DNA of 64,000 bases from contig CAXXNO010000012.1 in the NCBI GenBank assembly GCA_963663235.2, positions 160,001 through 224,000 of the forward strand, in the 5' to 3' direction. Source of the stretch: Dehalococcoidia bacterium (GTDB lineage Bacteria > Chloroflexota > Dehalococcoidia > Bin125). The notes under the pieces were generated by a model. It ran no database searches. It was not told the DNA's origin and was given only the letters and a program-made list of their open reading frames with translations. Shown one piece after another: positions 42,683 to 58,866 of this stretch; within the stretch, counting starts at the first letter, position 1, and each line of letters starts with the position of its first letter. Both the position numbers and the translations under genes were made by a program.

Positions 42683-42811
42683 GACGCCGCCGGCTCGGGC
42701 CCGCCGCACAGGGTTGACAGGACTCAAGCCGGCGTCACCATGTGTAGCAACGCAGTCGATCGCCCGTCGAGCGACGCAAATCATCGACACCAACAAGGTA
42801 GGGAGAGAGTG

Positions 42812-43375
42812 ATGGCCTTACGTCGAGTGCCGCGCGAGGAGATGACCGAGCAAGAGAGGAAATGGCTCGACGACAGCAAGGCGTTGGGGCTAGACACGCG
42901 CTGGATCGAGTTCATCGCCAACGCGCCCCACGTGAGCCGGTTCCTCTGGGAGGACTTCTACCAGAAGCTCTTCTACAACGGCATCGTGCCGGTGCACATC
43001 AAGGAGTTGACGCAGCTCAAGCTATCCCATCTCCACGGCTGCGCGTTCTGAAACAAGGTGAATACCGTCTCGGCGAGACGGAACGGCGTCACCGACGAGC
43101 AGATCGAGGCCCTCGACACCTTTGAAACGGGGCCGTTCAGCGAACAAGAGAAGGTCGCCCTGCGGTTCGCGGGCAAGATGGCGCTCACGGAGCCGCACGG
43201 GGAGGTGGACGACAACCTGATGGCGCAGATGCAAGAGCACTTCAGCGACGCGCAGATCGCTGAGCTGGCAGTGGTCCTGTGCGTCGACGTGGGGTGGGCG
43301 AAGATGCTCTTCACCCTGGACTGGGCGGAGAAGGAGACCTCCTGCTACTACCGGCATCCGGCAGAGGCGGAGTAG
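42812..43375 (+). CDS. AhpD/carboxymuconolactone-decarboxylase family selenoprotein (CxxU), UGA at 43049-43051
   Basis: KELTQLKLSHLHGCAF-TGA-NKVN..GVTDEQIEAL..FSEQEKVALRFA..HFSDAQIAEL continues in frame; SECIS-like hairpin follows. Confidence 0.85.
43065..43081 (+). promoter_or_regulatory. SECIS-like hairpin (AhpD-like gene)
   Basis: CCGTCTC-GGC-GAGACGG; loop starts 20 nt after UGA; outer GGTGA/TCACC pairing possible. Confidence 0.7.
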
Positions 43376-43497
43376 CGGGCGACCCCCGGCGCGTCCATTC
43401 GCCCGCCGATGGCTGGAGAGACTAGCACTTCGCCGGCCGCGAATCGGCGAGGGGGTCAGGAGTGGTCCGGGAAAGCGGCGGGGGCGCGGAGACGCGC

Positions 43498-43917
43498 CTA
43501 GCGAAGCTCGACGATTTCGATGGCGAAGGTGAGCGCCTGGCCCGCCAGGGGATGGTTGGCATCGAGGGTGATCGTGGCATCGTCGACGGCGGCGACGGTC
43601 ACGTCGCGTCCGCCGATCTCCACTCGGTCCCCGACGCTCAGGCCTTTCGGTCCCTGGTCGATCGGCAGTTTGATGACTCGCCGCTCATCGCGATCGCCGT
43701 ACGCCTGATCGGGATCAAAGCGAACCGTCTTGCTCTCGCCAAGCGCCATGCCCCGCACGGCGGCGTCGAACCCGGCGATGACCTCGCCCGCCCCGACCCG
43801 GAAGGAGAAGGGCTTGCCCCGCTGCCGCGAGGAATCGACGACGCGCCCGTCGTCCAGCGTGACAGTGTAGTGGACGACCACGGTGTCCCCGTCTTGGGCC
43901 GTTGCGTCCAGTGGCAT
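43498..43917 (-). CDS. FKBP-type peptidyl-prolyl isomerase (SlyD/FkpB-like)
   Basis: VVVHYTVTLDDG..DSS, GEVIAGFD, AYG, LDANHPLAGQAL. Confidence 0.9.
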   Translation of the reverse strand: MPLDATAQDGDTVVVHYTVTLDDGRVVDSSRQRGKPFSFRVGAGEVIAGFDAAVRGMALGESKTVRFDPDQAYGDRDERRVIKLPIDQGPKGLSVGDRVEIGGRDVTVAAVDDATITLDANHPLAGQALTFAIEIVELR

Positions 43918-43927
43918 CGGGCGTCGC

Positions 43928-44380
43928 TCAGCGGCGGAGGATCTCGAGGAGCTCGAGGACCGTCCCGTCCGGGTCCTTGAGACAGACGAAGCGTTCGCCC
44001 CCGGCCAGGTTGATGTTCTGCGGCTCGGAGAGGAACTGCACGCCCTTCGCCTTGAGATCCTCATAGACCTGGGGGAGATTCTCCGTCCGCAGGGCGATGC
44101 GGCTGGCGCCCGCGTGATGCAGATGCGGGTAGGCCTTCCCCTCCGTCTTGGGCGTGGTCCACTCGATAAGGTCGATGCGGGTCGCCCAGGGATCATTGCC
44201 GATGCGCAGGAGGCCCGCGCGAGCGACGCCCTCAGACATCCCCAACCCTTTGGCCAGCTCCGGCGTCAGCGCCGTCTCCGGCATATCCAGCACCACCTCA
44301 AAGCCCAGCAGCTTGTAGAACGCCAGGGAGCGCTCGAAGTCCGTGCAGTTGATGTTGATGTGGAACAGCCCTTTGATCAT
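43928..44380 (-). CDS. VOC/glyoxalase family protein
   Basis: HININCTDFERSLAFY, KDPDGTVLEL. Confidence 0.87.
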   Translation of the reverse strand: MIKGLFHININCTDFERSLAFYKLLGFEVVLDMPETALTPELAKGLGMSEGVARAGLLRIGNDPWATRIDLIEWTTPKTEGKAYPHLHHAGASRIALRTENLPQVYEDLKAKGVQFLSEPQNINLAGGERFVCLKDPDGTVLELLEILRR

Positions 44381-44457
44381 CGTTTCCCCCCTGTGCAACG
44401 CCGATAGTGTACTGATACGAGGCCGAAATGGCTTCGCACACGGCCGGGCGGAACAGG

Positions 44458-45588
44458 TCAGGCGCGCATCGACTCGGGATCGATCCCGTGCTCCCGGCAC
44501 CACGCGCCATAAGCGATGGGCGAGATCTCAGACGGCTTGATCTCGCTGCGACCGCCCCAAAAGACATTGGTGTAGCCGACAGGGATGCCGGCTTCCTCCA
44601 GGTGCGCGTCGATGGCGGCCTTGTGCGCCAGCACCAAGTCCTTCTCCATGCCGTGCGCCACGCCCATGACGTTGACGTCGCGGAACTCCGGCCCGCCCTC
44701 GCGCCAGTAGGCGTGGGTCATGATGTGATGGCGGCCGACCTCCCGCCCGGCGTCGATCTCCCGGCCCGGTGGCACACGCCAGTGGAAGAGCGCATTGTAG
44801 CGGGTGACACGCTGGTCCCCGGCGACCGCCTTGGCATGCTCCAGGAACGTGGAGAAGCGCCCGATGATCTTGCGCCGATCGAGGGCCTCCGCCACCGCGC
44901 AGAACTCCTCCATGCTCATCCCCGCCTCGACGGCGCGGCGGCGCCACAGGTCCGGTTCGATCTCCTCCGGGCGAAATTCGCGCTTGAGCGTCTCCAGCGC
45001 CTGCCACTCGCGGTCGCTGAGCGTGGCGATCACCGTATCGAGAACCTCGGCGGGCTCCTCGCTGCGGCTTCCGGGCGCGAGCCCGCGCCGGCGCGTATGG
45101 CCCACACCCAAGGCGAACAGCCGTTTCGCCGGCATGGTCCGGTAGCCCTGGGCGCCAATCTCGGCCGCCAGGTAGTCGGCGTGCTTCCGCATCGAGAAGC
45201 CCTGGGGCACCTTGAGCGTGGTCCAGAGGCGGTAGGCCGATCCAGGCGTCTCCGCGTCGGTCGTGCGAATCACCACATGCCCGGAGAAGGGGTCCTGCTG
45301 GAACAGGTAGTCGAACGCGGCGGGGAGGCGGTCGGGCGGCACCTGCCAGGCGATCAGGGCCCCGTGCGCCAGGTTGGTCGATAGCAAGGTCTGGCGCACC
45401 CGACGGATGGTGCCGGCCTGCAACATCGCGCGGATGCGCTCGATCACGACCGGCAGCTCGACGCCCGAGCGGTGGGCGATCTCCGCCAGGGGATCGCGCT
45501 GGAAGCCTTGGAGGCGGTCTTCCGAAACCGAGAGGATGGCCACGTTGACGGGGTCATCAATGGTGACGGGGACCGTGGACAGCGGCAT
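44458..45588 (-). CDS. Siroheme decarboxylase-like (fused AhbA/AhbB, NirDL-type Lrp/AsnC-fold) protein
   Basis: Two HTH+AsnC-like halves; GHVVIR and THAYWR resemble the HxxxR motifs; NALFHWRVP. Confidence 0.65.
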   Translation of the reverse strand: MPLSTVPVTIDDPVNVAILSVSEDRLQGFQRDPLAEIAHRSGVELPVVIERIRAMLQAGTIRRVRQTLLSTNLAHGALIAWQVPPDRLPAAFDYLFQQDPFSGHVVIRTTDAETPGSAYRLWTTLKVPQGFSMRKHADYLAAEIGAQGYRTMPAKRLFALGVGHTRRRGLAPGSRSEEPAEVLDTVIATLSDREWQALETLKREFRPEEIEPDLWRRRAVEAGMSMEEFCAVAEALDRRKIIGRFSTFLEHAKAVAGDQRVTRYNALFHWRVPPGREIDAGREVGRHHIMTHAYWREGGPEFRDVNVMGVAHGMEKDLVLAHKAAIDAHLEEAGIPVGYTNVFWGGRSEIKPSEISPIAYGAWCREHGIDPESMRA

Positions 45589-45647
45589 GGACCGATGATG
45601 GCCGCCCGCGCTGCCGGACGCAAGCAAACCCGGCCGGGCCTCGCCGA

Positions 45648-46370
45648 TCACCCGCTCGACGACGGGCCGAACAGCAGCTGGACCCCATCGAGGTCCAGCA
45701 GACGGATGCGCCGGCGGCCCAGTTCCACCAGCCCCGCCTTGGCCATTTGATTGAGGGCCCGGCTGACGGACTCCCGCGTGGCGCCCACCATCTCCGCCAG
45801 ATCCTGCTGGGACAGATCGCGGACCGTCTGCGTCCGGGGATCACATTCCCGCAGCAGCACGGAAGCCAGCCGCGCCTCCAGCCGCTGATACGCCAGCGTC
45901 TCCAAGCGCACCTCGGCATCGCGGAGGCGGGCGGCCAAGTGCTCGATCACGCGGTCGGCGATGTCGGGGTGGTGGCGGAGCAGGCGCGATACATCGGCCC
46001 GGCTCATGGCGCAGACGAGGCTGTCTTAGGTCGCCTCAGCGAAACTGCCGGACATCCCCTGCCCTAAGACGGATATTTCCCCGAAAAAGGAGCCCGGCTT
46101 GACATCGCCGACGGTGAGTTTCTTGCCCTCCGTGTTGAGCCGGTAAAGCTGCACGTGCCCTTTCTTGAGAAGGAAGAGCACCTCATCTCCTCCTTGCGGC
46201 TCGTAGAGCACGCGGCCGGCGGGGCACGTGGTGAGGTTGGTCATCGCGTCGACCTCGGCCAGGGTGTCGTCGCCGAGATCACGGAACAATTCGTTCGCGG
46301 CAAGCAACGCCCGCTTCTCGGCCGCGGCCAGCTCCGGCCGTCCGCGCGCGCGGGAGAGCAGAGCCTTCAT
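45648..46370 (-). pseudogene. Crp/Fnr family regulator interrupted by in-frame TAA (46026-46028)
   Basis: cNMP-binding domain (FFGEIS..SFAEAT*DSLVC) continuous with HTH (LSQQDLAEMVGATRESVSRAL). Confidence 0.8.
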
Positions 46371-46642
46371 GTGGCCGACTGTTCCAGACGAGCCACGAGG
46401 GTGTCCAGCAGCGCCCGGCTGATCTGGGTCCGGGAGGGGGTGCCGAACTGGATCAGGCGGCCCTCCAGCAGGAAGGCCGGCACCGCGATGACGGTGTCGG
46501 GCGTCGGCTGTCCGGGCTCTAGGCGGTGGATCGTCACCCGGACCATGGGGAACCACTCTTGGACTTCGGCGGCGACGGCTTCCGCGGCATCGCAGCTGGG
46601 GCACTGATCGTCGAGATTGACGTCAAAGCTCAGGGTAGCCAT
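46367..46642 (-). CDS. Small thioredoxin/glutaredoxin-like protein
   Basis: CPSC, VIAVPAFLLEG, FGTP; stop overlaps Crp start (ATGA). Confidence 0.72.
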   Translation of the reverse strand: MATLSFDVNLDDQCPSCDAAEAVAAEVQEWFPMVRVTIHRLEPGQPTPDTVIAVPAFLLEGRLIQFGTPSRTQISRALLDTLVARLEQSAT

Positions 46643-46675
46643 GGCTCCAGCTTCGTGGACCTGCCCCGGTTCGTC

Positions 46676-46691
46676 GGTGACCGTGCTCACA
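46676..46691. promoter_or_regulatory. CRP-like box 1
   Basis: GGTGA-CCGTGC-TCACA. Confidence 0.6.
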
Positions 46692-46752
46692 AAACAGGAA
46701 ACCGGGCCAGGTCCTATACTTCCCGCTGGGCTCGGCGGAATTTTTCCCCGAA

Positions 46753-46768
46753 AGTGATCGAGGTCACG
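46753..46768. promoter_or_regulatory. CRP-like box 2
   Basis: AGTGA-TCGAGG-TCACG. Confidence 0.55.
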
Positions 46769-46852
46769 GTGGCGGCAGCGGGCCACCCGTAGCCTCCCAC
46801 TAAGAGTCGCGTTCAAGCAGTCACAAAGCGATCGACGGAATGGGGAAATGGC

Positions 46853-47293
46853 ATGGGAAAGCACACGGCCCAGATCGACATCCAAGCCCCGGCGGACAAG
46901 GTGTGGGGAGTCATCACCAACGGGGAACGGCTGTCTGACTGGCTCAGCCCAGTCAGCAACGTGGAAGGGATTGAGCCGGCCGGCCCGCTGGCGGCCGGGA
47001 GCAAGCTGGAGGTCACCATCGGCAAGATCGGAGGAGCCAAGCTCAACATCAAAGAGGCGCAGCGCGGCCGGACGCTCCGCTGGAACGCGGGGCCGGCCAT
47101 GGCGCACATGATGCGCATGCCGATGAAGATCGAGCTGGACCTGCAGCCGCGGGGCGAGACCACCACGGCGACGATCACCTTCAAGACCAACCCGATGATC
47201 GCGCCCCTCATGAAGATGATGACCGGCCTCAACTTCAAGGAAGAGGCGCCGAATACGGTGCAGAAGCTGAAGGCCGCGGTGGAAAGCGCCTAG
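46853..47293 (+). CDS. SRPBCC/polyketide cyclase family protein
   Basis: IDIQAPADKVWGVITN..LSDW..KLKAAVES. Confidence 0.82.
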   Translation: MGKHTAQIDIQAPADKVWGVITNGERLSDWLSPVSNVEGIEPAGPLAAGSKLEVTIGKIGGAKLNIKEAQRGRTLRWNAGPAMAHMMRMPMKIELDLQPRGETTTATITFKTNPMIAPLMKMMTGLNFKEEAPNTVQKLKAAVESA

Positions 47294-47305
47294 CGGGAGC
47301 CTCCC

Positions 47306-47760
47306 ATGCCAGTGCGGAAGCTGATGCGGGATCCCGTCGCGGATCTCGAGCGTGTGGCCGACGAGGCGCTCGGCCCGCCGGTCGTTGAGCGGATCGAGAA
47401 AGAGTTGGGCGACGCCCGCTGTTGCCGCTGATCGCCTTAGGGATGGTCGGCGCCGGCGTGGTGCTCATCGTCGTTCTGACGATCATCGCCGGGACCCTTT
47501 CCGACAACTTCGGCGCCGGCGGGGACTCAGAGCTCGCCGCGAGGACGTTCAAGCCCTGGTTCCGCATCACCTTGCTCACCGGCGCTGGGATCATCCTGGC
47601 GGGCATCCTCACCATGCTGCTCGCCATCATCGTGCGGATCTGGTGGGTGACGTTTACCAACATCAACTACCTGCCGGTGATCGTGGACGCGCGCCGTCAG
47701 GCCGCGGGCCGGCCGGCCCGGTTCACGACCGACAACGCGACGCGGAACGGAGAGAACTGA
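47306..47760 (+). pseudogene. Small membrane protein, apparently frameshifted near 47395-47403
   Basis: ATG 47306 (GGGAG upstream) gives MPVRKLMRDP..ERIEK, which joins by a 1-nt shift to RVGRRPLLPLIALGMVG.. two-TM frame ending at 47760. Confidence 0.55.
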
Positions 47761-48443
47761 TGGCCGTACGCACCGCGATCAAGCCGTCCGAGGCGTTGAC
47801 GCAACGGGTCAACGCGAGGGTGGCGGCGTTGCCGCCCGTGCACATGACCGCCATGCAGACCATGGCCACCTTCCTGTGGCGGCCGCTGGCGCTGATGGGC
47901 ATCCTGATGCTCGCCTCCGGGGCGATCATCGCCGGGGTCAGCTCGTTCCGGGTGGACGAGTTCTTCGGGCTCGCGCAGCCGGACCTCGGCGCGGAGGCGA
48001 CGTTCACCAGCATCCAGACGTGGCTGCCCGGCTACCAGTTCATGGGCATGGGCTTCCTGTTTGCGGCCATCACCATGGTGGTGGCGTCGCTCCTGGGCCG
48101 GCTGCGGATCCTTGGCGGCACGGTGCAAACCTCGCTGGGAGCGCAGGTCAGGTTCCCGCCCTTCCCGATGACGGCACGGATCTTTCCGCTGCTGATGCTC
48201 CTCGGCTTGATGGTCTTCATGGCCCAGCTGGGCGTCAGCGCCTGGCTGGCCACGGAGGCGAAGAGCGGTGACCTGCTGACGGTGGCCACCCACGCGGACT
48301 GGCTGCAGGGCATGCGGATCGCCGGGGTGGGGATCATGCTCGCCGGCATCGCGCTGGCCCTCTTCACCATCACCGGCCTGATGCGCTTCATGGCGCGGCG
48401 CGTGAGCGAGGTGGCAATCCAGGCGATCGAGGCGGACTCGTAG
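47760..48443 (+). CDS. Hypothetical 4-TM membrane protein with internal duplication
   Basis: ATG overlaps upstream TGA; repeated W-L..G-GxxxAxI helix pairs. Confidence 0.75.
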   Translation: MAVRTAIKPSEALTQRVNARVAALPPVHMTAMQTMATFLWRPLALMGILMLASGAIIAGVSSFRVDEFFGLAQPDLGAEATFTSIQTWLPGYQFMGMGFLFAAITMVVASLLGRLRILGGTVQTSLGAQVRFPPFPMTARIFPLLMLLGLMVFMAQLGVSAWLATEAKSGDLLTVATHADWLQGMRIAGVGIMLAGIALALFTITGLMRFMARRVSEVAIQAIEADS

Positions 48444-48503
48444 GACGGGATGCCTGGTTCCCTGGCAGCGGTGGCGTCGACCTCGACGCCGTCAGCGATG
48501 CGC

Positions 48504-48809
48504 TCAGGTAGGTCCGTGCACGTGGGCGCGCATGGGCTCCACGTCGACGGCGAACCACTTGAAGAAGAGGAAACGATTCAGGCGCAGGTCAACGCCCTTG
48601 GCCCATTGCACGAGCCGGAACGACAGGAGGATCTGGAGGCCATCCTGCTGGACCACCTGATAGCGGGAGGTGTTCTTGCCCTTGAGGTAGGTGTCGACCG
48701 ACACCTCCGGCTTGCCGCCTCAGCCGATGGGTGGGATGAAGTCGATGGCCATCGTCCCACCTCGGCGTTGCACCTCGTCGATCACGTCCGTGGTCAAGGT
48801 GATCTGCAT
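48504..48809 (-). CDS. HesB-like CC/Se-motif selenoprotein, UGA at 48722-48720
   Basis: RBS GGAGG; MQITLTTDVIDEVQRRGGTMAIDFIPPIG-TGA-GGKPEVSVDT..YQVVQQDGLQILLS..RFLFFKWFAVD in frame; SECIS-like hairpin. Confidence 0.78.
48689..48706 (-). promoter_or_regulatory. SECIS-like hairpin (CC/Se gene)
   Basis: Minus strand AGGTGTC-GGTC-GACACCT; loop starts 20 nt after UGA. Confidence 0.7.
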
Positions 48810-48973
48810 GAGTGCCTCCGCGCGCCCGCAGCGGCCGCCGTCTTGCCATACGCCCGCGGCGTGCCGGCGGATGTGGGCTGGGCTCCGGCCTAGATTATCA
48901 TCGGGATGGTTCAGTTTCGACGTGCGCGCTGAAGCGCGCACAGGCTCAGTGGAGGACGCGGAAGGGAGGACCT

Positions 48974-50182
48974 ATGGAACGAATACGAATGTACGGCGCC
49001 CCTTGGTGCCCGGACTGCCGCCGCGCCAAGGCGTTCTTGAGCGAGCATCGCGTGCCCTACGACTGGCTCGACGTCGATCACGACGCCGAGGCGCTGCGCT
49101 ACATCCAAGAGCTGCAGAACGGCGGCCGCAGCATCCCCATGCTGTTGTTCGAGGACGGCAGTTCTCTGGTGGAGCCGACCAACGAAGATCTTGCGCGCAA
49201 GTTGCATCTCAAGCTGGAAGCGGAGCGATCGTTCTACGACCTCGCCATCATCGGCGGCGGCCCCGCAGGGCTCGCCGCAGCCATCTACGCCGCCCGCGAG
49301 GGCATCGGCGCGATCGTCATCGATCGGAGTGCCCTGGGGGGCCAAGCAGGCGTGACCGATCGGATCGACAACTATCCGGGTTTCCCGGAGGGCATTGGCG
49401 GGGCCGAGCTGGCGGAGCGCTTCGTGCAGCAGGCTCGGCGCTACGGCGTCGAGTTGGTCTCAGCCGTCGGCGTGGATGAGGTCAGCACGGAGGAGCAGGA
49501 CGTGCTGCTGCGCCTCAGCAGCGGCCAGACGATCTGCACGCACGCGGCGATCGTGGCGACCGGATCAGTGTATCGGCGGCTGGGAGTGCCCGGCGAAGAG
49601 GATCTCATCGGCGCCGGGGTTCACTTCTGCGCAACCTGCGACGGGCCTTTCTACAAAGGGGCGGAGGAGTTGCTCGTGATCGGTGGGGGAAACTCCGGGA
49701 TGGAGGAAGGCTTGTTCCTCTCGCAGTTTGCGGAGCGGATCCGCGTGGTCGAGTCTTCGCCGGAACTCAAGGCGTCACAGCTGCTCCAAGACAAGGTCCG
49801 CGCCCACCCGAAGTTCAGCGTGCACACCAATACCCAGGTGATCGAGATCCGCGGCGAAAGGAAAGTGGAGGAGGTCGTGGCGCGGGATCGCGAGAGCGGC
49901 CAGGAGTTTCACTGGACTCCCAGCGCCGTGTTCGTCTTCATCGGCCTGACGCCCAACACAGACTTCGTGAAGGGCACGCTGGACCTGGACCAGTGGGGCT
50001 TCATCACCACGGACGACACCTTGCAGACGTCGATGCGAGGCGTCTTCGCGGCGGGCGACGTGCGGGCGGGCGCCACCAAGCAGCTCGGTTCCGCCGTCGG
50101 CGAAGGCATCACCGCGCTCCTGATGGTGCGCCAGTATCTCCAGCAGCGGACGCACCTCAGCGCCACGCCGGTCAACGCGTAA
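48974..50182 (+). CDS. Glutaredoxin/NrdH-like domain fused to thioredoxin-disulfide reductase
   Basis: N-terminal WCPDC..SIP; IIGGGPAG, NYPGF, CATCDG, GGGNSG, FAAGDV. Confidence 0.9.
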   Translation: MERIRMYGAPWCPDCRRAKAFLSEHRVPYDWLDVDHDAEALRYIQELQNGGRSIPMLLFEDGSSLVEPTNEDLARKLHLKLEAERSFYDLAIIGGGPAGLAAAIYAAREGIGAIVIDRSALGGQAGVTDRIDNYPGFPEGIGGAELAERFVQQARRYGVELVSAVGVDEVSTEEQDVLLRLSSGQTICTHAAIVATGSVYRRLGVPGEEDLIGAGVHFCATCDGPFYKGAEELLVIGGGNSGMEEGLFLSQFAERIRVVESSPELKASQLLQDKVRAHPKFSVHTNTQVIEIRGERKVEEVVARDRESGQEFHWTPSAVFVFIGLTPNTDFVKGTLDLDQWGFITTDDTLQTSMRGVFAAGDVRAGATKQLGSAVGEGITALLMVRQYLQQRTHLSATPVNA

Positions 50183-50204
50183 GCAGCACGGCGCCCCGGA
50201 CACC

Positions 50205-51071
50205 ATGCGTCTGACCCTCGGCGAGCACGAGATTGATTGCACCGACCGCACGGCGATCATGGCGATCCTGAACGTCGAGACAGATTCCCCCATCGCGGAG
50301 AGTGTCGTGGCGGTGGAGGAGGCCGTGACCCGCGGGCGGGCCTTGCGCGACGCCGGGGCAGAGATCATCGACGTAGGCGCGCACTCGACCCGCAGCGACG
50401 CGACGCCGATCTCACCACAGGAGGAGATCGAGCGTCTCTGCCCGGTGATCGAGAGGCTGCGGGCGGAAGGGATGATCGTTTCGGTCGACACCTGGACCCC
50501 GGCGGTGGCGCTGGCGGCGGCCCAGGCCGGCGTGCACATCCTCAACGACGTCAGCGGGGCGAGCGATCCGGCGATGGTCGCGGTCGCGGCGGAGCATCGG
50601 CTGCCGCTGATCATCATGCACATGCGTGGCCGGCCGACGCAGCATCGCCAAGCGGACCAGCGCTACGCGGACGTGGCCGCCGAGGTGCGCGGGTTCCTCA
50701 CCCAGCGCGCCGCGCAGTTGAGCGAGGCAGGCGTCGAGCAGGTGTGGCTGGACCCGGGCTTCCAGTTCGGCAAATCAGCGGCGGACAACGTACGCCTGCT
50801 GCTGGATTTGCCCAATCTCCTGGCGTTGGGTCGCCCGGTGGTGGTATCGGCGTCACGGAAGGGTTTTCTGTCGGAGCTGCTCGGGCACGGCGACCGGCAA
50901 GATGCGCCCGGCCTGCTGCCGGCCACGATCGCCGTGAACACGCTGGCGGCCTACTGGGGCGCCCACATTGTGCGCGTGCACGACGTGGCGGAGATGGCGG
51001 CCGCTCTGCGCATCGTGAACGGAGTCCGCGCCCAACGCCGCCTGGATGACGGCGCGCCGCCGTCCAACTGA
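50205..51071 (+). CDS. folP: Dihydropteroate synthase
   Basis: IMAILN..DS, IDVGAHSTR, SVDT, DPGFQFGK, SRKGF, IVRVHDV. Confidence 0.9.
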   Translation: MRLTLGEHEIDCTDRTAIMAILNVETDSPIAESVVAVEEAVTRGRALRDAGAEIIDVGAHSTRSDATPISPQEEIERLCPVIERLRAEGMIVSVDTWTPAVALAAAQAGVHILNDVSGASDPAMVAVAAEHRLPLIIMHMRGRPTQHRQADQRYADVAAEVRGFLTQRAAQLSEAGVEQVWLDPGFQFGKSAADNVRLLLDLPNLLALGRPVVVSASRKGFLSELLGHGDRQDAPGLLPATIAVNTLAAYWGAHIVRVHDVAEMAAALRIVNGVRAQRRLDDGAPPSN

Positions 51072-51098
51072 TACAATCGATCAGCGGAGCGAAGAGCC

Positions 51099-51305
51099 AT
51101 GCCCACGTACCAGTTTCGTTGCAAGGACGGCCACGAGTTCGAGCGTCTCATGTCGTTCGCCGAATTCGACCGCAGCAAGCGGGTGCGCTGCCCGGAGTGC
51201 AAGAAGGGCGCGACGCGCGCGCCGGGGGGCTTCCTGTCCTTTAACAGCAGCCAGACGCCGCTCAAGGCGGGCCGACCGCAACAGACCCGCTACCACCCCT
51301 GGTAG
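51099..51305 (+). CDS. FmdB family zinc-ribbon protein
   Basis: MPTYQFRCKDGHEFE..CPEC. Confidence 0.82.
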   Translation: MPTYQFRCKDGHEFERLMSFAEFDRSKRVRCPECKKGATRAPGGFLSFNSSQTPLKAGRPQQTRYHPW

Positions 51306-51317
51306 GCGCCCGGCCAC

Positions 51318-52163
51318 ATGACCACGGAAGCCGTGGCGGACATCACCGACGGGACCTTCGCCAGCGAGGTGCTAGAGCGCTCGCGCGAGGTGCCGGTCGT
51401 CGTCGATTTTTGGGCCCCTTGGTGCGGCCCCTGCCGCCACCTGAGCCCCACGCTGGAGCAACTGGCCCAGGAGTACGCCGGTAAGGTCCGCCTAGTAAAG
51501 GTCAACATCGACGAGAATCCCGCCGTCGCCGGGCGGCTCGGCGTCCAGAGCATCCCCGCCGTCATGGCGTTCCGCGATGGAGAGATCGTCGACCAGTTCG
51601 TCGGGGCGCTGCCGGAGCCCGACGTCCGGCGTTTCTTCGAATCGACGCTGCCGTCCCCAGCCGACCTGCTGGTGGCCGAGGCGGCGCAATCGCTCGCTGG
51701 GGGCGACGTCGCCGCAGCCGAGCGGGCCTATCAGTCAGCGCTGGCGGGAGACCCCCGCCACGCGGACGCCGCGCTGGGACTCGCGGCGCTCGTCCTGGAC
51801 CGAGGTGACCTCCCGCAGGCAGGCGCCCTGGCCGAGCCATGGGCCGGCGACGCGCACGGCAAGCGGATCCTGGGATTGATCAGTCTACGGCTGGCGGCCG
51901 AGGGTGCGACACGCGCCGAGATCGAAGAGCGCCTGCGAGCGGATGAGCGCGACGCGGCGGCGCACTATGTCCTCGGCGCCCTGCTCGCCGTCGAGGGCGA
52001 ATGGGACGCCGCGCTGGAGCACCTGCTGGAAACCGTCCGGCTGGACCGCGCCTTCGCCGACGACGGCGGCCGTCTGCGGATGCTGGACGCCTTCAACGTC
52101 CTCGGCGACGACGATCCGCTCACGCAGAACTACCGTCGCAGGCTGAGCGCGGTTCTCTTCTAA
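51318..52163 (+). CDS. Thioredoxin-TPR protein (CnoX/YbbN family)
   Basis: DFWAPWCGPC, VQSIP, TPR repeats, YRRRLSAVLF. Confidence 0.9.
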   Translation: MTTEAVADITDGTFASEVLERSREVPVVVDFWAPWCGPCRHLSPTLEQLAQEYAGKVRLVKVNIDENPAVAGRLGVQSIPAVMAFRDGEIVDQFVGALPEPDVRRFFESTLPSPADLLVAEAAQSLAGGDVAAAERAYQSALAGDPRHADAALGLAALVLDRGDLPQAGALAEPWAGDAHGKRILGLISLRLAAEGATRAEIEERLRADERDAAAHYVLGALLAVEGEWDAALEHLLETVRLDRAFADDGGRLRMLDAFNVLGDDDPLTQNYRRRLSAVLF

Positions 52164-52193
52164 CGCGTCGCGAGAGCGAAAACGAGACGGCCT

Positions 52194-52580
52194 TCAGGCC
52201 TCGGGCTCGGGGTCCATCCCACTCTCCGCTTCGGCTTGATCCGCATCTCCAGGCCGAACGCGCTTGGACCACGCCCACCAGCCCAGCGCCACCGTGGGCA
52301 CCAAGAAGATCAGCGGGAGGAAGATGGACGTGGCGAGCGTCTCGTCGCTCACGTGGAAGGGGTCGTCCGCACCGGCCTCCGCTTCCTGGCGGGGGGTGAC
52401 CGGGGGCCGACCGGCCACCGGATCATCCGTGGCCAACGCGACGGGCCGTTCACCCAGCGTGCTGTCGTCGAAGGCGGCCCCAGCCGTCGCCGAGCCGGCA
52501 GCCAGAGCGAGCGCCACCAGGCCGATCAACAGAGCGGCACGACTCGCGGACGGGGAGAGGCGGAACGCGACGCGGCTCAC
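52194..52580 (-). CDS. Hypothetical exported/membrane-anchored protein
   Basis: AGGAGA RBS + GTG; signal-like N-terminus and C-terminal TM helix. Confidence 0.55.
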   Translation of the reverse strand: MSRVAFRLSPSASRAALLIGLVALALAAGSATAGAAFDDSTLGERPVALATDDPVAGRPPVTPRQEAEAGADDPFHVSDETLATSIFLPLIFLVPTVALGWWAWSKRVRPGDADQAEAESGMDPEPEA

Positions 52581-52646
52581 GACATCTCCTCCTTGGCCGA
52601 CCGCAGTCAGTTTGGCCCGGTCCGGCGCGGCGGTCAACCGGCGCCA

Positions 52647-53543
52647 TCAGGTGAAGATGGGCAGGATCTCCTCAATCGCGCGGGCCTGCTTGCCGGTCGC
52701 CGCGTAGACGGAGAGGGTCAGCGGCTTGACGCCGGCAGCGTGCCAGGCCTCCACCTTCTCCCGCACCTGGGAGGCGGTGCCGAAGAGGGCCACGTCCTCA
52801 GCCATACGCTCTGAGACCGCCTCGTCCATGGCTTGCTTGTTCCCCTCAGCCTGCGCGGCGCGCGCCCGCTCTACCTCCTCGGCGTAGCCCGCCTCGATGA
52901 AGTAGTTCTGGTAGTTGGGCGTGGACATGTAGAGACGCAAGGCGCGCCGGATCGCGGCCAGGGCGGCGGCGCGATCGTCGGAGACGGAGCAGGGCGCCAG
53001 ATTCCCCACGATGAACGTGTCGCGCCGCTCGGCGGGAATCTCCTTGAGCGACTCGGGCATGTGTGACAGAGCGGCGTTGGCCCACAGGGCGCCGTCGGCG
53101 ATCTCGCCGGCGAGGCGGGTCATCTTCTTCCGCAGCGTCGCCAGGATCACCGGCGGGAGCGGCTGATCCTGCGCGGCCGCGCGCAGTTGCTCAACATAGC
53201 GGCGCATGTCGGTGACCGGTTTTCCCGCGCTAATCCCGAGCGGCCGCAGCGTCGGCTCATGCGCCACGCCCAGCCCGAGACGAAACCGCCCGTCGCTGAG
53301 CTCGTGGATCAAGTTCGCGCTGGCCGCCATGACCGAGGGATGGCGGGTGTAGATCACCGCGATGCCCGTGCCAATCTCGATCCGCTGGGTAGACATGGCG
53401 AGGGCCAGTGACAGCGAGACCCCGTCGGCATACGACGGGCAGTAGATATTCGGAAACCCGCGGCGGTCCAGCTCCTGCGCCGTCTCGATGATCGCACGGC
53501 GGCGGCCCGGCAGCGCCACCAGAGCAAACCCGGGCATCTCCAT
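52647..53543 (-). CDS. LLM-class (possibly F420-dependent) oxidoreductase
   Basis: IGTGIAVIYTRHP, LSDGRFRLGLG, LAGEIADG. Confidence 0.85.
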   Translation of the reverse strand: MEMPGFALVALPGRRRAIIETAQELDRRGFPNIYCPSYADGVSLSLALAMSTQRIEIGTGIAVIYTRHPSVMAASANLIHELSDGRFRLGLGVAHEPTLRPLGISAGKPVTDMRRYVEQLRAAAQDQPLPPVILATLRKKMTRLAGEIADGALWANAALSHMPESLKEIPAERRDTFIVGNLAPCSVSDDRAAALAAIRRALRLYMSTPNYQNYFIEAGYAEEVERARAAQAEGNKQAMDEAVSERMAEDVALFGTASQVREKVEAWHAAGVKPLTLSVYAATGKQARAIEEILPIFT

Positions 53544-53648
53544 GCAGTCAGCCCTCCCCTCTCAGAGACGATGTCCAGCGGAGGGTAGCAGTCACGGCGC
53601 GCTCAGCGTGAACCGCAGCGCGCCTCGCCGGGGTTTATACTTTGCGGC

Positions 53649-55211
53649 ATGAAGCCACCTGCCGTCTTCACCCTGCGCGACGACCGAGGGGCAACGTACG
53701 CCTTCCCCGCCTCGCGGCCCACGCTTCTGGCGTTCGTGAAGGAAGACTGCGAGACCTGCAATCTGGCATTGCCGCTGCTCGAAGCGATCCACCGCGCGGC
53801 GGGCGACCGGATCAACGTCTGGGGCGTGGCGCAAGGGACCGATGACATCAGCATCCTGCGCGAGCGGCACGGGCTCACCATGCCACTCTTGGACGACGAC
53901 ACGCTGGACCTCTCCTACGACGCCGACATCGACACGGTGCCCTCACTGTTCCTGTACGACAGCAGCGGCGCTTGCGTGCGCGAGCTCACCGCCTTCTGGA
54001 AGGACGAATGGCAGACCCTGATCGACGAGGCCGTCGCCCTCGCCGGGAACGGACAGGCCCCGGCGATCGAGTGGCCGGCCCTGCCGGCGAACCAGCCCGG
54101 GTGCGGGGCGCGCAACGTGCTGCCCGGCATCGCCGAGAAGCTGGCGGCGCGCCGCAGCGGCGATCTGCTGTCGCGGCGCATCGACGTCGCCGAGGGCGAC
54201 GACCTGCACGAGTTCATGTTCGACCAGGGGTTCACCGACGGCCTGCCCGTGGTCCCGCCCACGCCGGAGCGCGTCTGGCGCATGCTGCAAGGCACGAAAC
54301 GGGACCCACGCGATGTCGTCGCGGTGATTCCGCCCAACATGGCCCCGGGGACGGTGGAGAAAATCGCGGTCAACGCCGTGATGGCAGGCGCCGAGCCAGC
54401 GTATCTGCCCGCCATCCTGACCGCGATCGAGGCCGCCTGCACCGACGAGTTCAACATGCACGGCGTGCTGGCCACCACCTGGCTGGCCGGCCCCATCGTC
54501 ATCGTCAACGGGCCGGCGCGCCACAAGCTGGGCATGAACATGCAGGGCAACGCCCTGGGCCAGGGCAACCGCGCCAACGCCGCCATCGGGCGGGCGTTGC
54601 AACTGGTCGTACGCAACGTCGGCGGCGGCCGGCCCGGTGAAGTGGACCGCGCCACCCTGGGGGGGCCGCACAAGTACACGTGCTGCTTCGCCGAATGGGA
54701 GGAGCGGTCGCCCTGGGAGCCGTTGCACGTGGAGCGAGGGTTCGCCGCGGAAGACTCGACGATCACCCTGTTCGCCGGTTCCGGGCCGCAACCGATCGCG
54801 GATCAACTCTCGCGCGACGGCCGCTCGCTGGTGCGAAGCCTAGCGCTGGGCCTGGAGTCGCTCTGGCACCCAAAGATGCACAACTTCGGCGAAACGTTCC
54901 TGGTGATCTCGCCGGAGCACGCGGACACACTGGCCGGCAGTGGCTGGAGCAAAGACGACATCCGCAAAGGCATCCAAGAAGCCACCGCGCGGCCCTGGCG
55001 GGAGCTTGTGGGTGACGCGGCGTGCGCCGAGGGCACGCGCCCGCCCAAAGACCCCGCCGACTTGGACAAGCTCGTGCCCAAGTTCCGCAGCGAGCGCGAG
55101 ATCAACATCGTGGTCGCCGGTGGGGAAGCGGGCATGTTCTCGCACGTGCTGGGAAACTGGGTAAGCGGGCCGATGGGTTCGATCAGCATCACCCGCAAGA
55201 TCGCGGAGTAA
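53649..55211 (+). CDS. Redoxin (CxxC) domain fused to large domain of unknown function; partner of UGSC protein
   Basis: FVKEDCETC..TVP; PGCG linker; TDGLPVVPPTPERV, TVEKIAVNAVMAG, NRANAAIGRALQL, WEPLHVERGF. Confidence 0.8.
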   Translation: MKPPAVFTLRDDRGATYAFPASRPTLLAFVKEDCETCNLALPLLEAIHRAAGDRINVWGVAQGTDDISILRERHGLTMPLLDDDTLDLSYDADIDTVPSLFLYDSSGACVRELTAFWKDEWQTLIDEAVALAGNGQAPAIEWPALPANQPGCGARNVLPGIAEKLAARRSGDLLSRRIDVAEGDDLHEFMFDQGFTDGLPVVPPTPERVWRMLQGTKRDPRDVVAVIPPNMAPGTVEKIAVNAVMAGAEPAYLPAILTAIEAACTDEFNMHGVLATTWLAGPIVIVNGPARHKLGMNMQGNALGQGNRANAAIGRALQLVVRNVGGGRPGEVDRATLGGPHKYTCCFAEWEERSPWEPLHVERGFAAEDSTITLFAGSGPQPIADQLSRDGRSLVRSLALGLESLWHPKMHNFGETFLVISPEHADTLAGSGWSKDDIRKGIQEATARPWRELVGDAACAEGTRPPKDPADLDKLVPKFRSEREINIVVAGGEAGMFSHVLGNWVSGPMGSISITRKIAE

Positions 55212-55233
55212 ATCGCGGAGTAAGGAGAGCGCT

Positions 55234-55761
55234 ATGGTCCAGATCCTCGACCCCACGGATGAACGGAAGCCGGTCCAGCGACGGCTGGCGCCGCGGCCCG
55301 AAGCGCTGGAGGGCACAGTGGGCCTGCTGGATATCTCGAAGCCGCGGGGCGACGTGCTGATCGATCGCATCGAAGAGCTGTTACACGACAAGGCTCCGTC
55401 GCTCACCATCAAGCGCTACCGCAAGCCGACTTTCTCCAAGCCCGCGCCGGCGGCGCTGTTGGAAGAGATCAAGGAGGGCTGCGACTTCGTCATCGAAGCG
55501 TTGGCCGATTGAGGGTCGTGCACCACGTGCAGTGTGCACGACACGACCTGGCTAGAGACCCACGGGACGCCGGCGCTGTTCATCGCTTCGTCGGCGTTCA
55601 CGGAAGCGGCGCAGAAACAAGCGACAGCGCTGGGCCTGCCGCAGGTGCGACGCGCAATCGTACCGCACCCGATCCAGGGCCAGAGAGACGAAGAGATGCG
55701 CGCGCGGGCCGACGCCGTGGCGGATGAGCTCATCGAGGCGCTGCTGCGGCCGCCGGACTAG
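55234..55761 (+). CDS. UGSC-type selenoprotein (UxxCxxC), UGA at 55510-55512
   Basis: RBS AAGGAG; ..CDFVIEALAD-TGA-GSCTTCSVHD..LETHGTP..IVPHPI in frame to TAG 55761. Confidence 0.87.
55515..55542 (+). promoter_or_regulatory. SECIS-like hairpin (UGSC gene)
   Basis: GTCGTGCA-C-CAC-GTGCA-GTG-TGCACGAC; 11 bp with one bulge, loop begins with G. Confidence 0.65.
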
Positions 55762-56471: not shown

Positions 56472-57182
56472 ATGCCGATTCACCTGCGCGCCACGCCCGA
56501 CGACCTCGCTCCCACTGCTCTCCTGGTCGGCGACCCAGGGCGGGCTGAGCGCATCGCCGGAGGCCTGAGCGACGCCCGCTGCTACAACCGCAACCGCGGG
56601 CTGCTGGGCTACACCGGGGAGCACGCGGGCCTCCGCCTCTCCGTTCAGACCACGGGCATGGGCGGGCCTTCCGCGGCGATCGTTACCGAAGAGCTGGCCG
56701 AGCTGGGCGTCCGCACCGTGATCCGCCTGGGCACCTGCGGCGCGGTCGCCGAAGCGGTGGCGGTGCTGGATCTGGCCGTCGCGACGGCGTCCGTGCCGCT
56801 GGACGGCGCCACACGCCAGTACCTCCAGGGCGAGCCATTCGCGCCGGCCGCGGATTTTGCCGTGACGCACGCGCTCGTCGCCGCGGGCGAGGCCACGTCG
56901 CGCCCGGTTCATGTCGGGCTCTTCATGAGCAGCGATGCGTTCTACCGAGAGGAGACGGACTGGACCCGCTGGCGCGACCGAGGTGTGCTGGCCGTGGAGA
57001 TGGAGGCTGCCACGATCTTCACAGTCGCGCTGCATCGGGGGATGCGCGCCGGGGCGATCTGCCTGGTGGTGGACGAAGTGCGCGACCGATCCACCTGGGC
57101 CAGCGACGACGCGATCCAGGCGGCGACAGAGGATCTCATCGCCGTCGGGCTGCGGGCCGCGGTCGCGCTGAGCCGCTCCTAG
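56472..57182 (+). CDS. deoD: Purine nucleoside phosphorylase (DeoD type)
   Basis: GDPGRA, GMGGPS, RLGTCG, SDAFY, AVEME. Confidence 0.85.
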   Translation: MPIHLRATPDDLAPTALLVGDPGRAERIAGGLSDARCYNRNRGLLGYTGEHAGLRLSVQTTGMGGPSAAIVTEELAELGVRTVIRLGTCGAVAEAVAVLDLAVATASVPLDGATRQYLQGEPFAPAADFAVTHALVAAGEATSRPVHVGLFMSSDAFYREETDWTRWRDRGVLAVEMEAATIFTVALHRGMRAGAICLVVDEVRDRSTWASDDAIQAATEDLIAVGLRAAVALSRS

Positions 57183-57889
57183 GGGGGACCGCCCGACACG
57201 CTCAGCGAGTCGGCGCCCTCGCCCCTACCCGGCGGCCCCGCGGTCGAGCGCAAGTAGCGCACGGTCTCCAGCGCTTCGCCTCCCGGCAGCGCCCTGGCGC
57301 GCGTCAAATCCTCAGGCGTATCGATGTCCAGAGCCCAACGCGCCGTCTCCACGACCGCCACAACCGCACCGGCCGCGCGCGCCGCCGCTTGGTGACGCGC
57401 CGCGGAGCCCGGCCCGTAGGCGGGCGCCATCACGCCCGGCGGCCGCAGCAACAGGCCGTTGGTGCCGCCGTCGCGCGACGGCGCGATGACGACGCTCGGC
57501 GCGCGCGCGAGCGCATCCGTGAGAGCGATGATGTCGGCGGCGCTGATCAAGGGCAGATCACCCGGAACGACCAGCAGCGCGTCGGCGTCCGCGCGGGCCT
57601 CCTGAGCAAGGCGCACGGCCGCGTTGAGGTCGCCGATGCCGGGTGGCTCCTGGAGAAACGCGGCGCCCAGCCGGGAGGCCTCGCGCGCCGCCGCCGCATC
57701 GCGGCTGAGCACCGTCACCCCACTGATACCGGGCGCCGCCCGCAGCGCCCGCACCACGTCATGCAGCATGGCGCGGACCAAGCGGATGCGCTGCTCCGGT
57801 TGAAGAACGGCGGCCAGCCGTGACTTGCCCGCCGGCAGGCCACGGACGGGGACGACCGCCTCAATCGTCGGCCCATCTGTCGGTGTCAC
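57179..57889 (-). CDS. cofC: 2-phospho-L-lactate/PEP guanylyltransferase (F420 biosynthesis)
   Basis: VVPV..GKSRL, GDLP, DGGTN, LDIDTPEDL. Confidence 0.9.
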   Translation of the reverse strand: MTPTDGPTIEAVVPVRGLPAGKSRLAAVLQPEQRIRLVRAMLHDVVRALRAAPGISGVTVLSRDAAAAREASRLGAAFLQEPPGIGDLNAAVRLAQEARADADALLVVPGDLPLISAADIIALTDALARAPSVVIAPSRDGGTNGLLLRPPGVMAPAYGPGSAARHQAAARAAGAVVAVVETARWALDIDTPEDLTRARALPGGEALETVRYLRSTAGPPGRGEGADSLSVSGGPP

Positions 57890-58866
57890 GCCGCACCCAG
57901 GGCGAGATCGGCGAGCGAATCGAGAGTGACGCGGGCCAGCGCCCGCTTCTCCTGCGGTCCCGCCATGATGGTCTGCGTGACCACGCAGGCAGCCGCGCTC
58001 TCTTCGCGGACCGCATCGGCCAGCGCCGCGTCCTCGTGGTCGAGGACGAAGAGGTCGATGAGGTCACGGTAGAGGCGCGCCACTCCCAACGCGGAGACAT
58101 CGTGGCCGAGGCTGGCCAGGATCGCCGCGGCCGGTCCCTTCAGCGCGCGGCCGCCCACGATCGGGCTGATCGCGGCCTTCGGCGCCTTGCTGGCCAGCAG
58201 GCAATCGCGGACGCCGGGGACCGCCAGGATGGGCTCGATGGAGAGGAACGGGTTGCTCGGCGCGATGATGATGGCCCGAGCCGCCATGATCGCCTCGTGC
58301 ACGCCGGGAGTCGCGACGGCGGCCTCGGCGCCGGCGAAGCGCAGCCCCAAGACACGGTCTTGCGTGCCCCGTCGCACGAAGTACTCCTGGAAGGCCAACT
58401 CTCCGTCCGGCGTCTCCACCATCGTGCGCAGGCGGCCGTCGGTTGCGGGCAGGATCGTGACGCGCAGGCCGAGCGCCCGCGCGATCTCGGCGGTCACCGC
58501 GCTCAGCGATGCGCCCTCACGCAGGCGCTGTGTGCGGTAGAGATGTGTCCCGATATCGCGGTCGCCCAGGCGGAACCAATCGGGTCCGCCGAGGCTGCGG
58601 AGCGCATCGAGCGCGTGGAACGTCTCCCCGCGCAGGCCCCAGCCCGTTTCCGGGTTCACCAGCCCCGCGAGGGTGTACGTGACGGTGTCTAGATCGGGGG
58701 CGATGTGCAGGCCGCCCAGTTCGAAGTCGTCACCGACGTTGACGATGGCGACCACCTCATCGGGCGGCACGACCTGAACCACGCCCTCCAAGAAGCGGGC
58801 CGCACCAACCCCGCCGGCCAGCGCCACGACCGGGGTCCCGCCCTTGCTCGCGGCATCGTCGGTCAC
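57886..58866 (-). CDS. cofD: 2-phospho-L-lactate transferase (F420 biosynthesis)
   Basis: LAGGVGAARF, NVGDD, PDLDT, FQEYFV, PSNPFLSI, KGPA. Confidence 0.93.
   Translation of the reverse strand: MTDDAASKGGTPVVALAGGVGAARFLEGVVQVVPPDEVVAIVNVGDDFELGGLHIAPDLDTVTYTLAGLVNPETGWGLRGETFHALDALRSLGGPDWFRLGDRDIGTHLYRTQRLREGASLSAVTAEIARALGLRVTILPATDGRLRTMVETPDGELAFQEYFVRRGTQDRVLGLRFAGAEAAVATPGVHEAIMAARAIIIAPSNPFLSIEPILAVPGVRDCLLASKAPKAAISPIVGGRALKGPAAAILASLGHDVSALGVARLYRDLIDLFVLDHEDAALADAVREESAAACVVTQTIMAGPQEKRALARVTLDSLADLALGAA

Follow-up and report, generated by a model that had tools for sequence, protein, structure and literature searches.

A 64,000-nucleotide (nt) stretch of DNA from a Dehalococcoidia bacterium (assembly GCA_963663235.2, contig CAXXNO010000012.1, here contig 12, positions 160001-224000), called the window in the following, carries within 13 kb three genes that are each interrupted by in-frame TGA codons. 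The three UGAs are very probably selenocysteine (Sec) codons, each with a Sec insertion sequence (SECIS) hairpin behind it. An earlier note on this DNA had pointed to the three TGAs (43049 and 55510 on the plus strand, 48722 on the minus strand), all of which are present in the contexts that it described, and the G-starting hairpin loop that it reported after each of them could be confirmed, at a distance of 20 nt in two cases and of 19 nt in the third. Gene 1 would encode a thiol-selenol oxidoreductase of the AhpD/CMD fold with a CxxU centre, and gene 3 a UGSC-family protein with a UxxC centre that would be paired with a conserved redoxin-like neighbour. Gene 2 would encode a protein of the IscA/SufA fold with two Sec residues, each UGA having a SECIS of its own, the first within the codons of the gene and the second in the 3' untranslated region. 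With positions in the hairpins counted from the U of the UGA as 1, the predicted features are as follows.

42812..43375, plus strand: gene 1, AhpD/CMD-like selenoprotein; 187 codons, ATG with GGGAGAG upstream, TAG stop
43049..43051, plus strand: Sec codon of gene 1; context HGCAF-U-NK, motif CxxU
43065..43081, plus strand: SECIS of gene 1; CCGUCUC-GGC-GAGACGG, loop 24-26, 20 nt after the UGA
48492..48809, minus strand: gene 2, small IscA/SufA-fold selenoprotein; 105 codons, Sec at U30 and U102, ATG start, TGA stop at 48494-48492
48720..48722, minus strand: first Sec codon of gene 2; context PPIG-U-GGK
48689..48706, minus strand: SECIS 1 of gene 2; AGGUGUC-GGUC-GACACCU, loop 24-27, 20 nt after the UGA, within the codons for E-V-S-V-D-T-Y
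48504..48506, minus strand: second Sec codon of gene 2; context HGPT-U-AHR, frame HGPT-TGA-GCG-CAT-CGC-TGA
48473..48490, minus strand: SECIS 2 of gene 2, in the 3' untranslated region; GGCGUCG-AGGU-CGACGCC, 13-nt spacer, 7-bp stem, loop start 24
55234..55761, plus strand: gene 3, UGSC-family selenoprotein; 175 codons, ATG with AAGGAG upstream, TAG stop
55510..55512, plus strand: Sec codon of gene 3; context LAD-U-GSC
55513..55549, plus strand: SECIS of gene 3; lower stem and upper hairpin CGUGCA-GUG-UGCACG (55526-55540), loop 23-25, 19 nt after the UGA

Under translation table 11, each gene falls into two open reading frames (ORFs), namely 42740-43051 and 43058-43375 for gene 1, 48720-48941 and 48504-48704 for gene 2, and 55234-55512 and 55534-55761 for gene 3. 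Reading through the TGA turns genes 1 and 3 into single frames with one odd codon each, and the ATG of every one of the three genes has a purine-rich, Shine-Dalgarno-like stretch upstream. In the proposed mechanism, the hairpin directly 3' of the UGA would recruit SelB carrying Sec-tRNA(Sec), and the UGA would then be read as Sec instead of as a stop. That all three are genuine selenoprotein genes which use this standard bacterial route can be held with high confidence.

The genome, a 2.75-Mb assembly of 14 contigs with 67-70% G+C (about 68%) and a completeness of 91.9%, holds the complete Sec-decoding trait. Specifically, selA scores 551.8 bits against a cut-off of 268, selB, on contig 12 about 27 kb before the window, 359.1 against 242, and selD, which has one in-frame TGA of its own in the motif CGG-U-GSK, 357.8 against 125; selC, the gene for tRNA-Sec, was found on contig 4 by ARAGORN and matches Rfam RF01852 with 70.9 bits against a gathering score of 47. 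All four components that the earlier note had proposed to look for are therefore present in one genome, above their cut-offs. TGA is otherwise an ordinary stop in this genome: the 1376 confident long ORFs that served as control set end on TGA in 622 cases, on TAG in 594 and on TAA in 160.

Gene 1 matches the Pfam CMD domain (PF02627) with 49.4 bits against a cut-off of 23 and has C-A-F-U at the redox site. With the specific NCBIfam models it falls short of the cut-offs, for instance with the YciW-related NF053654 (64.4 against 310 bits), and it therefore forms a separate subfamily of the CMD fold. One TGA is present in 17 of the 20 CMD-like matches from 61 related genomes, and the orthologues of gene 1 with 76-78% identity retain it. 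The whole arrangement of HGCxxU, TGA and a same-register hairpin with a GGC loop is found in seven loci of relatives and in two of the own genome, the second being a paralogue on contig 4. In the closest orthologues the hairpin reads CCGCUUC-GGC-GAAGCGG, with two compensatory pair changes and an unchanged register, and one homologue (L211) has Cys at the Sec site and is without such a hairpin.

For gene 3, the match to the UGSC family is above both cut-offs (NCBIfam NF041046, 160.6 bits against 125; Pfam PF24696, 169.9 against 25). The same 61 genomes gave 131 UGSC matches, all but one of them (130/131) with one in-frame TGA; in the taxonomic family of the present genome, all 36 genomes have UGSC genes. 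The own genome has three UGSC paralogues with the same hairpin geometry (loop start 23). Across 30 loci the register of the upper hairpin is kept through compensatory changes (CGUGGA/UCCACG, CGGCCA/UGGCCG, CAUGCA/UGCAUG), and the Ser codon AGT, which gives the G and U of the loop, is retained in 29 of the 30, though it is a rare codon type in this GC-rich genome. Directly upstream lies a further gene:

53649..55211, plus strand: uncharacterised gene for a 520-residue protein with an N-terminal CxxC (CETC)

By tblastn, this gene stands beside UGSC in 26 of 29 loci of relatives. Its protein has no Pfam or NCBIfam match, and its look-alikes in the Atlas are redoxin-domain hypothetical proteins, which serves as a lead only; it may be a redox partner of UGSC.

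In gene 2, the effect of gene calling extends to the whole family. All 17 database relatives from a sequence search are pieces of 64-69 residues that start with VSVDTYLKGK, just past the UGA, and of the 119 matches of a profile search against 1.84 billion representatives, 100 begin only at profile position 34, after the UGA. Gene callers thus cut this family systematically, which, with the splitting of all three window genes, bears out the earlier claim that standard callers fragment them. A search of 300 other genomes, spread evenly over the phylum, gave no match to gene 2, owing to sampling, as a later peptide scan with one genome per species gave 88 relatives, 80 of which were kept (loci L122-L201). 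These 80 loci come from Chloroflexota/Dehalococcoidia, Acidimicrobiia, Nitriliruptorales and one metagenome-assembled genome (MAG) labelled Acidobacteria. The residue before the U is G, T, S, V, A or N in the relatives. Cys forms of site 1 also exist: 10 of 15 fetched profile-search proteins have x-C-G (P0022-P0029, P0088, P0113), and three distant ones (P0114, P0131, P0136) have a CC motif, G-C-C-G.

The codons that form SECIS 1 are under a constraint of their own. Among 79 gene 2 sequences, AGGTGTCGGTCGACACCT is almost invariant at the nucleotide level, and the synonymous sites are frozen: the V, V, D and T codons inside the hairpin show 5 variants in 316, against 96 in 395 for the Y, L, K, G and K codons downstream. 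The earlier note had called for a look at synonymous sites in relatives. One locus (L200) has a compensatory change from G-C to A-U, and other loci have G-U. In the Cys forms, the otherwise invariant motif E-V-S-V-D-T-Y-L-K-G-K has decayed, and the comparison suggests that this motif may be conserved in part for the SECIS RNA and not for the protein.

As to what gene 2 encodes, an AlphaFold2 model from an alignment of 78 sequences reached a predicted local distance difference test score (pLDDT) of 86.9 and a predicted template modelling score (pTM) of 0.76. VIA-align compared it best with SufA (Z 9.7), DsrR (9.6) and IscA (9.2, two entries) over 85-92 residues, with the next unrelated row at Z 3.4, and Foldseek related it to the A-type fold with an E-value of 1.2e-4. 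The modelled protein has the fold of the A-type Fe-S carriers (IscA/SufA/HesB). At the level of sequence, the family profile gave no match at E 1 among the sequences of solved structures, Pfam Fe-S_biosyn did not match, and the HesB-like selenoprotein model TIGR01911 (motif UxGP) matched neither the window protein nor any of the 78 members at E 0.01. The one family to which gene 2 shows a match is NF041239, the CC/Se motif family, which 75 of the 78 members reach at E <=0.01 (best 7.7e-11); the relationship is real but distant, and gene 2 is an under-annotated relative of this catalogued family. A-type carriers presumably bind their cluster through three Cys, one after strand 2 and a C-x-C near the C-terminus. 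U30 follows strand 2 in the model and (U/C)102-x-H104 lies at the C-terminus, so that the third ligand would be a His and not a Cys. Site 1 is Sec in most clusters of the family seen, and site 2 is Sec or Cys. The somewhat favoured interpretation is that gene 2 represents an under-annotated IscA-fold branch in Chloroflexota and Actinomycetota with Sec at one or both ligand positions, the two-Sec form being a small selenium-based metal, cluster or selenium-carrier protein; as part of the same interpretation, and with the same modest preference, the constraint on SECIS 1 would hold the peptide E-V-S-V-D-T-Y in place across phyla, together with the nucleotides. A literature search found no description of the two-Sec form, though supplementary tables may list the family or this form.

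The hairpins themselves can be compared with the bacterial SECIS consensus, the bSECISearch model of Zhang and Gladyshev, as it is given in the available part of a later article (PMC13188914): a spacing of 16-37 nt between UGA and loop, a loop of 3-9 nt in which the first or second nucleotide is a G, often with another G or a U after it, on an upper stem of 4-16 bp, and a minimum free energy (MFE) of <= -7.5 kcal/mol. The four window hairpins (SECIS of gene 1, SECIS 1 of gene 2, SECIS of gene 3 and SECIS 2 of gene 2) have spacings of 20, 20, 19 and 20 nt, loops GGC, GGUC, GUG and AGGU and stems of 7, 7, 6 and 7 bp, and as such lie within all four constraints of the consensus as stated there. 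The energy limit is also reached by control sites and does not discriminate here. A MAFFT alignment of the four hairpins gave no common register.

The alternative that the TGAs are true stops, with genes that are split, decaying or mis-assembled and hairpins that are incidental structure of a GC-rich genome, draws on observations that at the same time weigh against the selenoprotein interpretation. Gene callers do take these TGAs as stops, and in this genome of 68% G+C about one control site in three (33-36%) has an unspecific hairpin of 5 bp or more behind it. The MFE over 45 nt (-14.8 kcal/mol for gene 1, -18.2 for SECIS 1 of gene 2, -18.6 for gene 3 and -16.8 for SECIS 2 of gene 2) is unremarkable against control sites with means of -13.4 to -14.4 and standard deviations of 4.4-5.0, so that the Sec sites have no better energies. 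Relative to shuffled sequences the z-scores are -2.3 for gene 1, -1.8 for SECIS 1 of gene 2 and -1.4 for gene 3, and only -0.5 for the second hairpin of gene 2; with both measures overlapping the controls, folding energy was dropped as a discriminator. Further points on this side concern the samples and the assignments. The count of TGA at site 1 of gene 2, 80 in 80 loci, is biased, as the scan that collected these loci looked for the peptide VDTYLKGK, whose codons lie in SECIS 1 and directly behind it, and the TGA at the CxxU site of gene 1 was checked in nine loci, with the weaker CMD matches outside that check. The gene 2 protein reaches 25.7-25.8 bits with NF041239 against a cut-off of 40, and the equivalence of U30 to the first Cys of IscA would follow from its place in the predicted secondary structure. 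Sec insertion itself, the contact with SelB and the redox or metal-binding chemistry are likewise deduced from sequence. What decides the matter is geometry and conservation. A strict pattern, with a perfect stem of at least 6 bp and a G-first loop of 3-5 nt starting at 22-25, is present behind all three of the sites first noted, against 8 of 621 true TGA stops and 64 of 4128 in-frame codons picked at random; hairpin geometry therefore exceeds chance, while hairpin stability does not. The earlier note had asked whether the hairpins are any more frequent than after true UGA stops, and the answer is divided: the strict geometry is rarer in controls, but hairpins of 5 bp or more are common there and their energies overlap. 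Against true stops stand, in addition, the in-frame conservation of the TGA and both its flanks across dozens of genomes, domain matches that span the TGA, homologues with Cys at the same positions (L211 for gene 1, and both sites of gene 2), compensatory and synonymous-site constraint on the hairpins, and the full Sec machinery in the genome, all of which makes true stops extremely improbable.

For gene 2, it also has to be weighed whether both of its UGAs are recoded. The first UGA of the earlier note is borne out, but the note had overlooked the second Sec codon at 48506-48504. This TGA could be a real stop, with a terminator or chance hairpin behind it: the tail past it amounts to three codons (A-H-R) before another TGA, the hairpin is energetically no better than its shuffles, and 5 of 33 loci of the TGA type have no hairpin of at least 6 bp. 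Such a stop is nevertheless rather unlikely, as the TGA stands in the alignment at exactly the place of the Cys in a conserved C-x-H end (database relatives of gene 2 end in HGPxCxH), with x-H continuing in frame; across the 80 loci, site 2 is Cys in 46, TGA in 32 and not callable in two. Hairpins with a stem of 6 bp or more and a G at loop position 1 or 2 go with the TGA (28 of 33 ends) and not with Cys codons (8 of 44). The 28 hairpins have 23 distinct stem sequences, through which the SECIS register and the G are kept, and arms taken from different loci are fully complementary in 17 of 506 combinations; the hairpins were preselected as perfect stems, and these numbers therefore describe diversity of sequence under a kept structure and are no independent pairing statistic. 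A run of at least four T follows none of the 31 hairpins found, so that the hairpin is no intrinsic terminator. The loop lies 20 nt from the site 2 UGA and only 8 nt from the final stop UGA, outside the range of 16-37 nt, and this spacing would be the reason for which the former is recoded and the latter is not. The TGA at 48506-48504 is thus quite likely a Sec codon. The proposal of the earlier note that the spacing of 20 nt and the GG-starting loop are a lineage-specific SECIS type, usable as a search model, did not hold. Four Sec codons do stand in exactly this register (gene 1, its contig 4 paralogue and both sites of gene 2), and the exact pattern, with a GG loop at 24 and a stem of at least 7 bp, is rare, with 15 matches among the 59,891 TGA trinucleotides of the genome, all of which were taken into the pattern scans. 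These four are, however, only a quarter of the 16 Sec codons of the genome, whose loops start at 24 (four), 23 (the three UGSC), 25 (two), 21 (two), 26, 28 and 29, two being ambiguous, and some of the others have their G second in the loop. The exact pattern recovers 3 of the 16 sites, 12 of its 15 matches are out-of-frame false positives and its only new true site is the gene 1 paralogue; a looser pattern recovers 14 of 16 at the price of 12,633 matches. In gene 2, the geometry of SECIS 1 is identical in Actinomycetota and Chloroflexota copies (78 of 80 loci), and since Acidimicrobiia, Nitriliruptorales and Chloroflexota keep the register alike, it follows the gene and not the lineage. The 20-nt/GG geometry, as well as every unambiguous Sec site, also falls within the general consensus, as far as the available part of PMC13188914 states it. 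A lineage-specific type is therefore very unlikely, and the shared register is a property of gene families that gives no stand-alone search model.

With the three window genes read as selenoprotein genes, the genome as a whole has at least 15 such genes with 16 Sec codons. In the selenoprotein scan, every TGA was scored for coding potential on both sides, and 119 read-through candidates (79 and 40) were tested against Pfam. Nine new selenoprotein genes have domains that span the TGA: the CMD paralogue on contig 4, a Rdx/SelW-like, a ferredoxin-thioredoxin-reductase-like (CHU) and an OsmC-like protein, two of the AhpC/TSA type, a methyltransferase, a rhodanese and a glutaredoxin. One candidate, in a DUF1801 gene, has an unexplained TGA; the remainder had no TGA-spanning domain, those with matches being neighbouring genes in one frame and many being without a match. 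The tally of 15 consists of these nine genes, SelD, two further UGSC paralogues and the three window genes, and is a lower bound, as SelD, UGSC2 and UGSC3 were missed by the coding thresholds and recovered by other routes. With the complete Sec machinery, this agrees with the description of the organism as selenoprotein-rich in the earlier note; the selenoproteome is sizeable, though well below the 46-49 reported for some Dehalococcoidia MAGs in the available part of PMC13326102. The genes are clustered, with 6 pairs within 13 kb against 0.96 expected (P ~0.001; 20,000 random placements of 15 genes), and the six pairs stem from two three-gene clusters, one in the window and one on contig 5. 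In the latter, at about 45281-50939, an AhpC/TSA-type peroxiredoxin (FWUPYC), a Rdx/SelW-like protein (CATU) and UGSC2 (SSD-U-GSC) follow each other within 5.4 kb.

The neighbourhood of genes 2 and 3 is redox-themed. Divergent from gene 2, at 48812-50182 (plus strand), lies a glutaredoxin/mycoredoxin-like domain fused to a thioredoxin-reductase-like flavoprotein, and between genes 2 and 3, at 51318-52163 (plus strand), a thioredoxin-TPR fusion. A luciferase-like monooxygenase (52647-53543, minus strand) and CofC and CofD of coenzyme F420 biosynthesis (57179-58866, minus strand) are also present. Elsewhere, the glutaredoxin-thioredoxin-reductase fusion accompanies gene 2 in 1 of the 80 loci and five other neighbours in none, and clustering of the flanking ORFs of the gene 2 loci gave no family in more than 10 loci, except for one artefactual cluster that overlaps gene 2 itself. 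Two further window candidates, at 13331 and 39212 on the minus strand (L090 and L089), were rejected, having no Pfam domain and the composition of a wrong frame.

Outside the window, the ferredoxin-thioredoxin-reductase beta-like gene on contig 1 (TGA at 26680, plus strand; L022) has C-H-U in place of CHC and a hairpin with a bulged U and a GGUC loop. The prototype of bacterial SECIS elements is that of E. coli fdhF, which the L022 hairpin presumably resembles. The DUF1801-family gene lies on contig 12 (TGA at 335390, plus strand; L254), with its TGA in ESIK-TGA-GYPTY, where the family presumably has Trp; no clear SECIS-like hairpin was found 3' of this TGA, which could reflect a pseudogene, an assembly error or another cause. 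A 100-nt 'tRNA-???' that ARAGORN called on contig 5 (159277-159376; L262), with a two-base anticodon, had no Rfam match at E 0.01 and is probably a false positive.

These results have consequences for how such genes are found and annotated. Stop-to-stop gene calling splits or truncates three genes with four Sec codons in the window and at least 12 genes elsewhere in the genome, and in the case of gene 2 the error is systematic in public databases. As a lesson of method, where a genome is GC-rich, the energy of a hairpin is of no use, and a narrow rule of geometry has poor recall; a SECIS is recognised by its register and its conservation, that is, by compensatory changes, by frozen synonymous sites and by a hairpin that is present with TGA but missing where the codon is one for Cys. 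The two-Sec IscA-fold protein and the UGSC-redoxin pair furthermore provide starting points for the study of two selenoprotein families of unknown function.

Compared with known systems, most of what lies at this locus is familiar. 'AhpD-like 1/2' selenoproteins and UGSC are long-known, abundant selenoprotein families according to the available part of PMC2398784. Gene 1 resembles the former in its CMD domain, scored above the cut-off, and in having CxxU at the AhpD redox site, and gene 3 the latter in scoring above both family cut-offs, in its U-G-S-C motif and in being a Sec form like nearly all of its relatives. No difference was found between gene 3 and the 'UGSC-containing protein' of the Global Ocean Sampling (GOS) selenoproteome, as far as it is described in that part of the article. 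Nothing essential separates the hairpins of the window from a consensus SECIS, and the identical 13-nt spacer and 7-bp stem in genes 1 and 2 are a family trait; with its UGA only four codons before the stop, SECIS 2 of gene 2 comes to lie wholly in the 3' untranslated region. Gene 2 departs furthest from what is catalogued. Like the A-type carriers and NF041239, it has Sec or Cys in the glycine-rich loop after the second strand; unlike NF041239, with its CC or C-Sec motif, it has G-U-G-G without an adjacent Cys, and its C-terminus carries, beyond that family, a (U/C)-x-H in which the second Sec lies. For the nearest family of gene 2, a line of a review table gives CxxU and one Sec. Taken together, both the selenoprotein genes and their SECIS elements are of the ordinary bacterial kind, to which the locus adds the second Sec of gene 2 with its own SECIS and a hairpin geometry that is bound to gene families.

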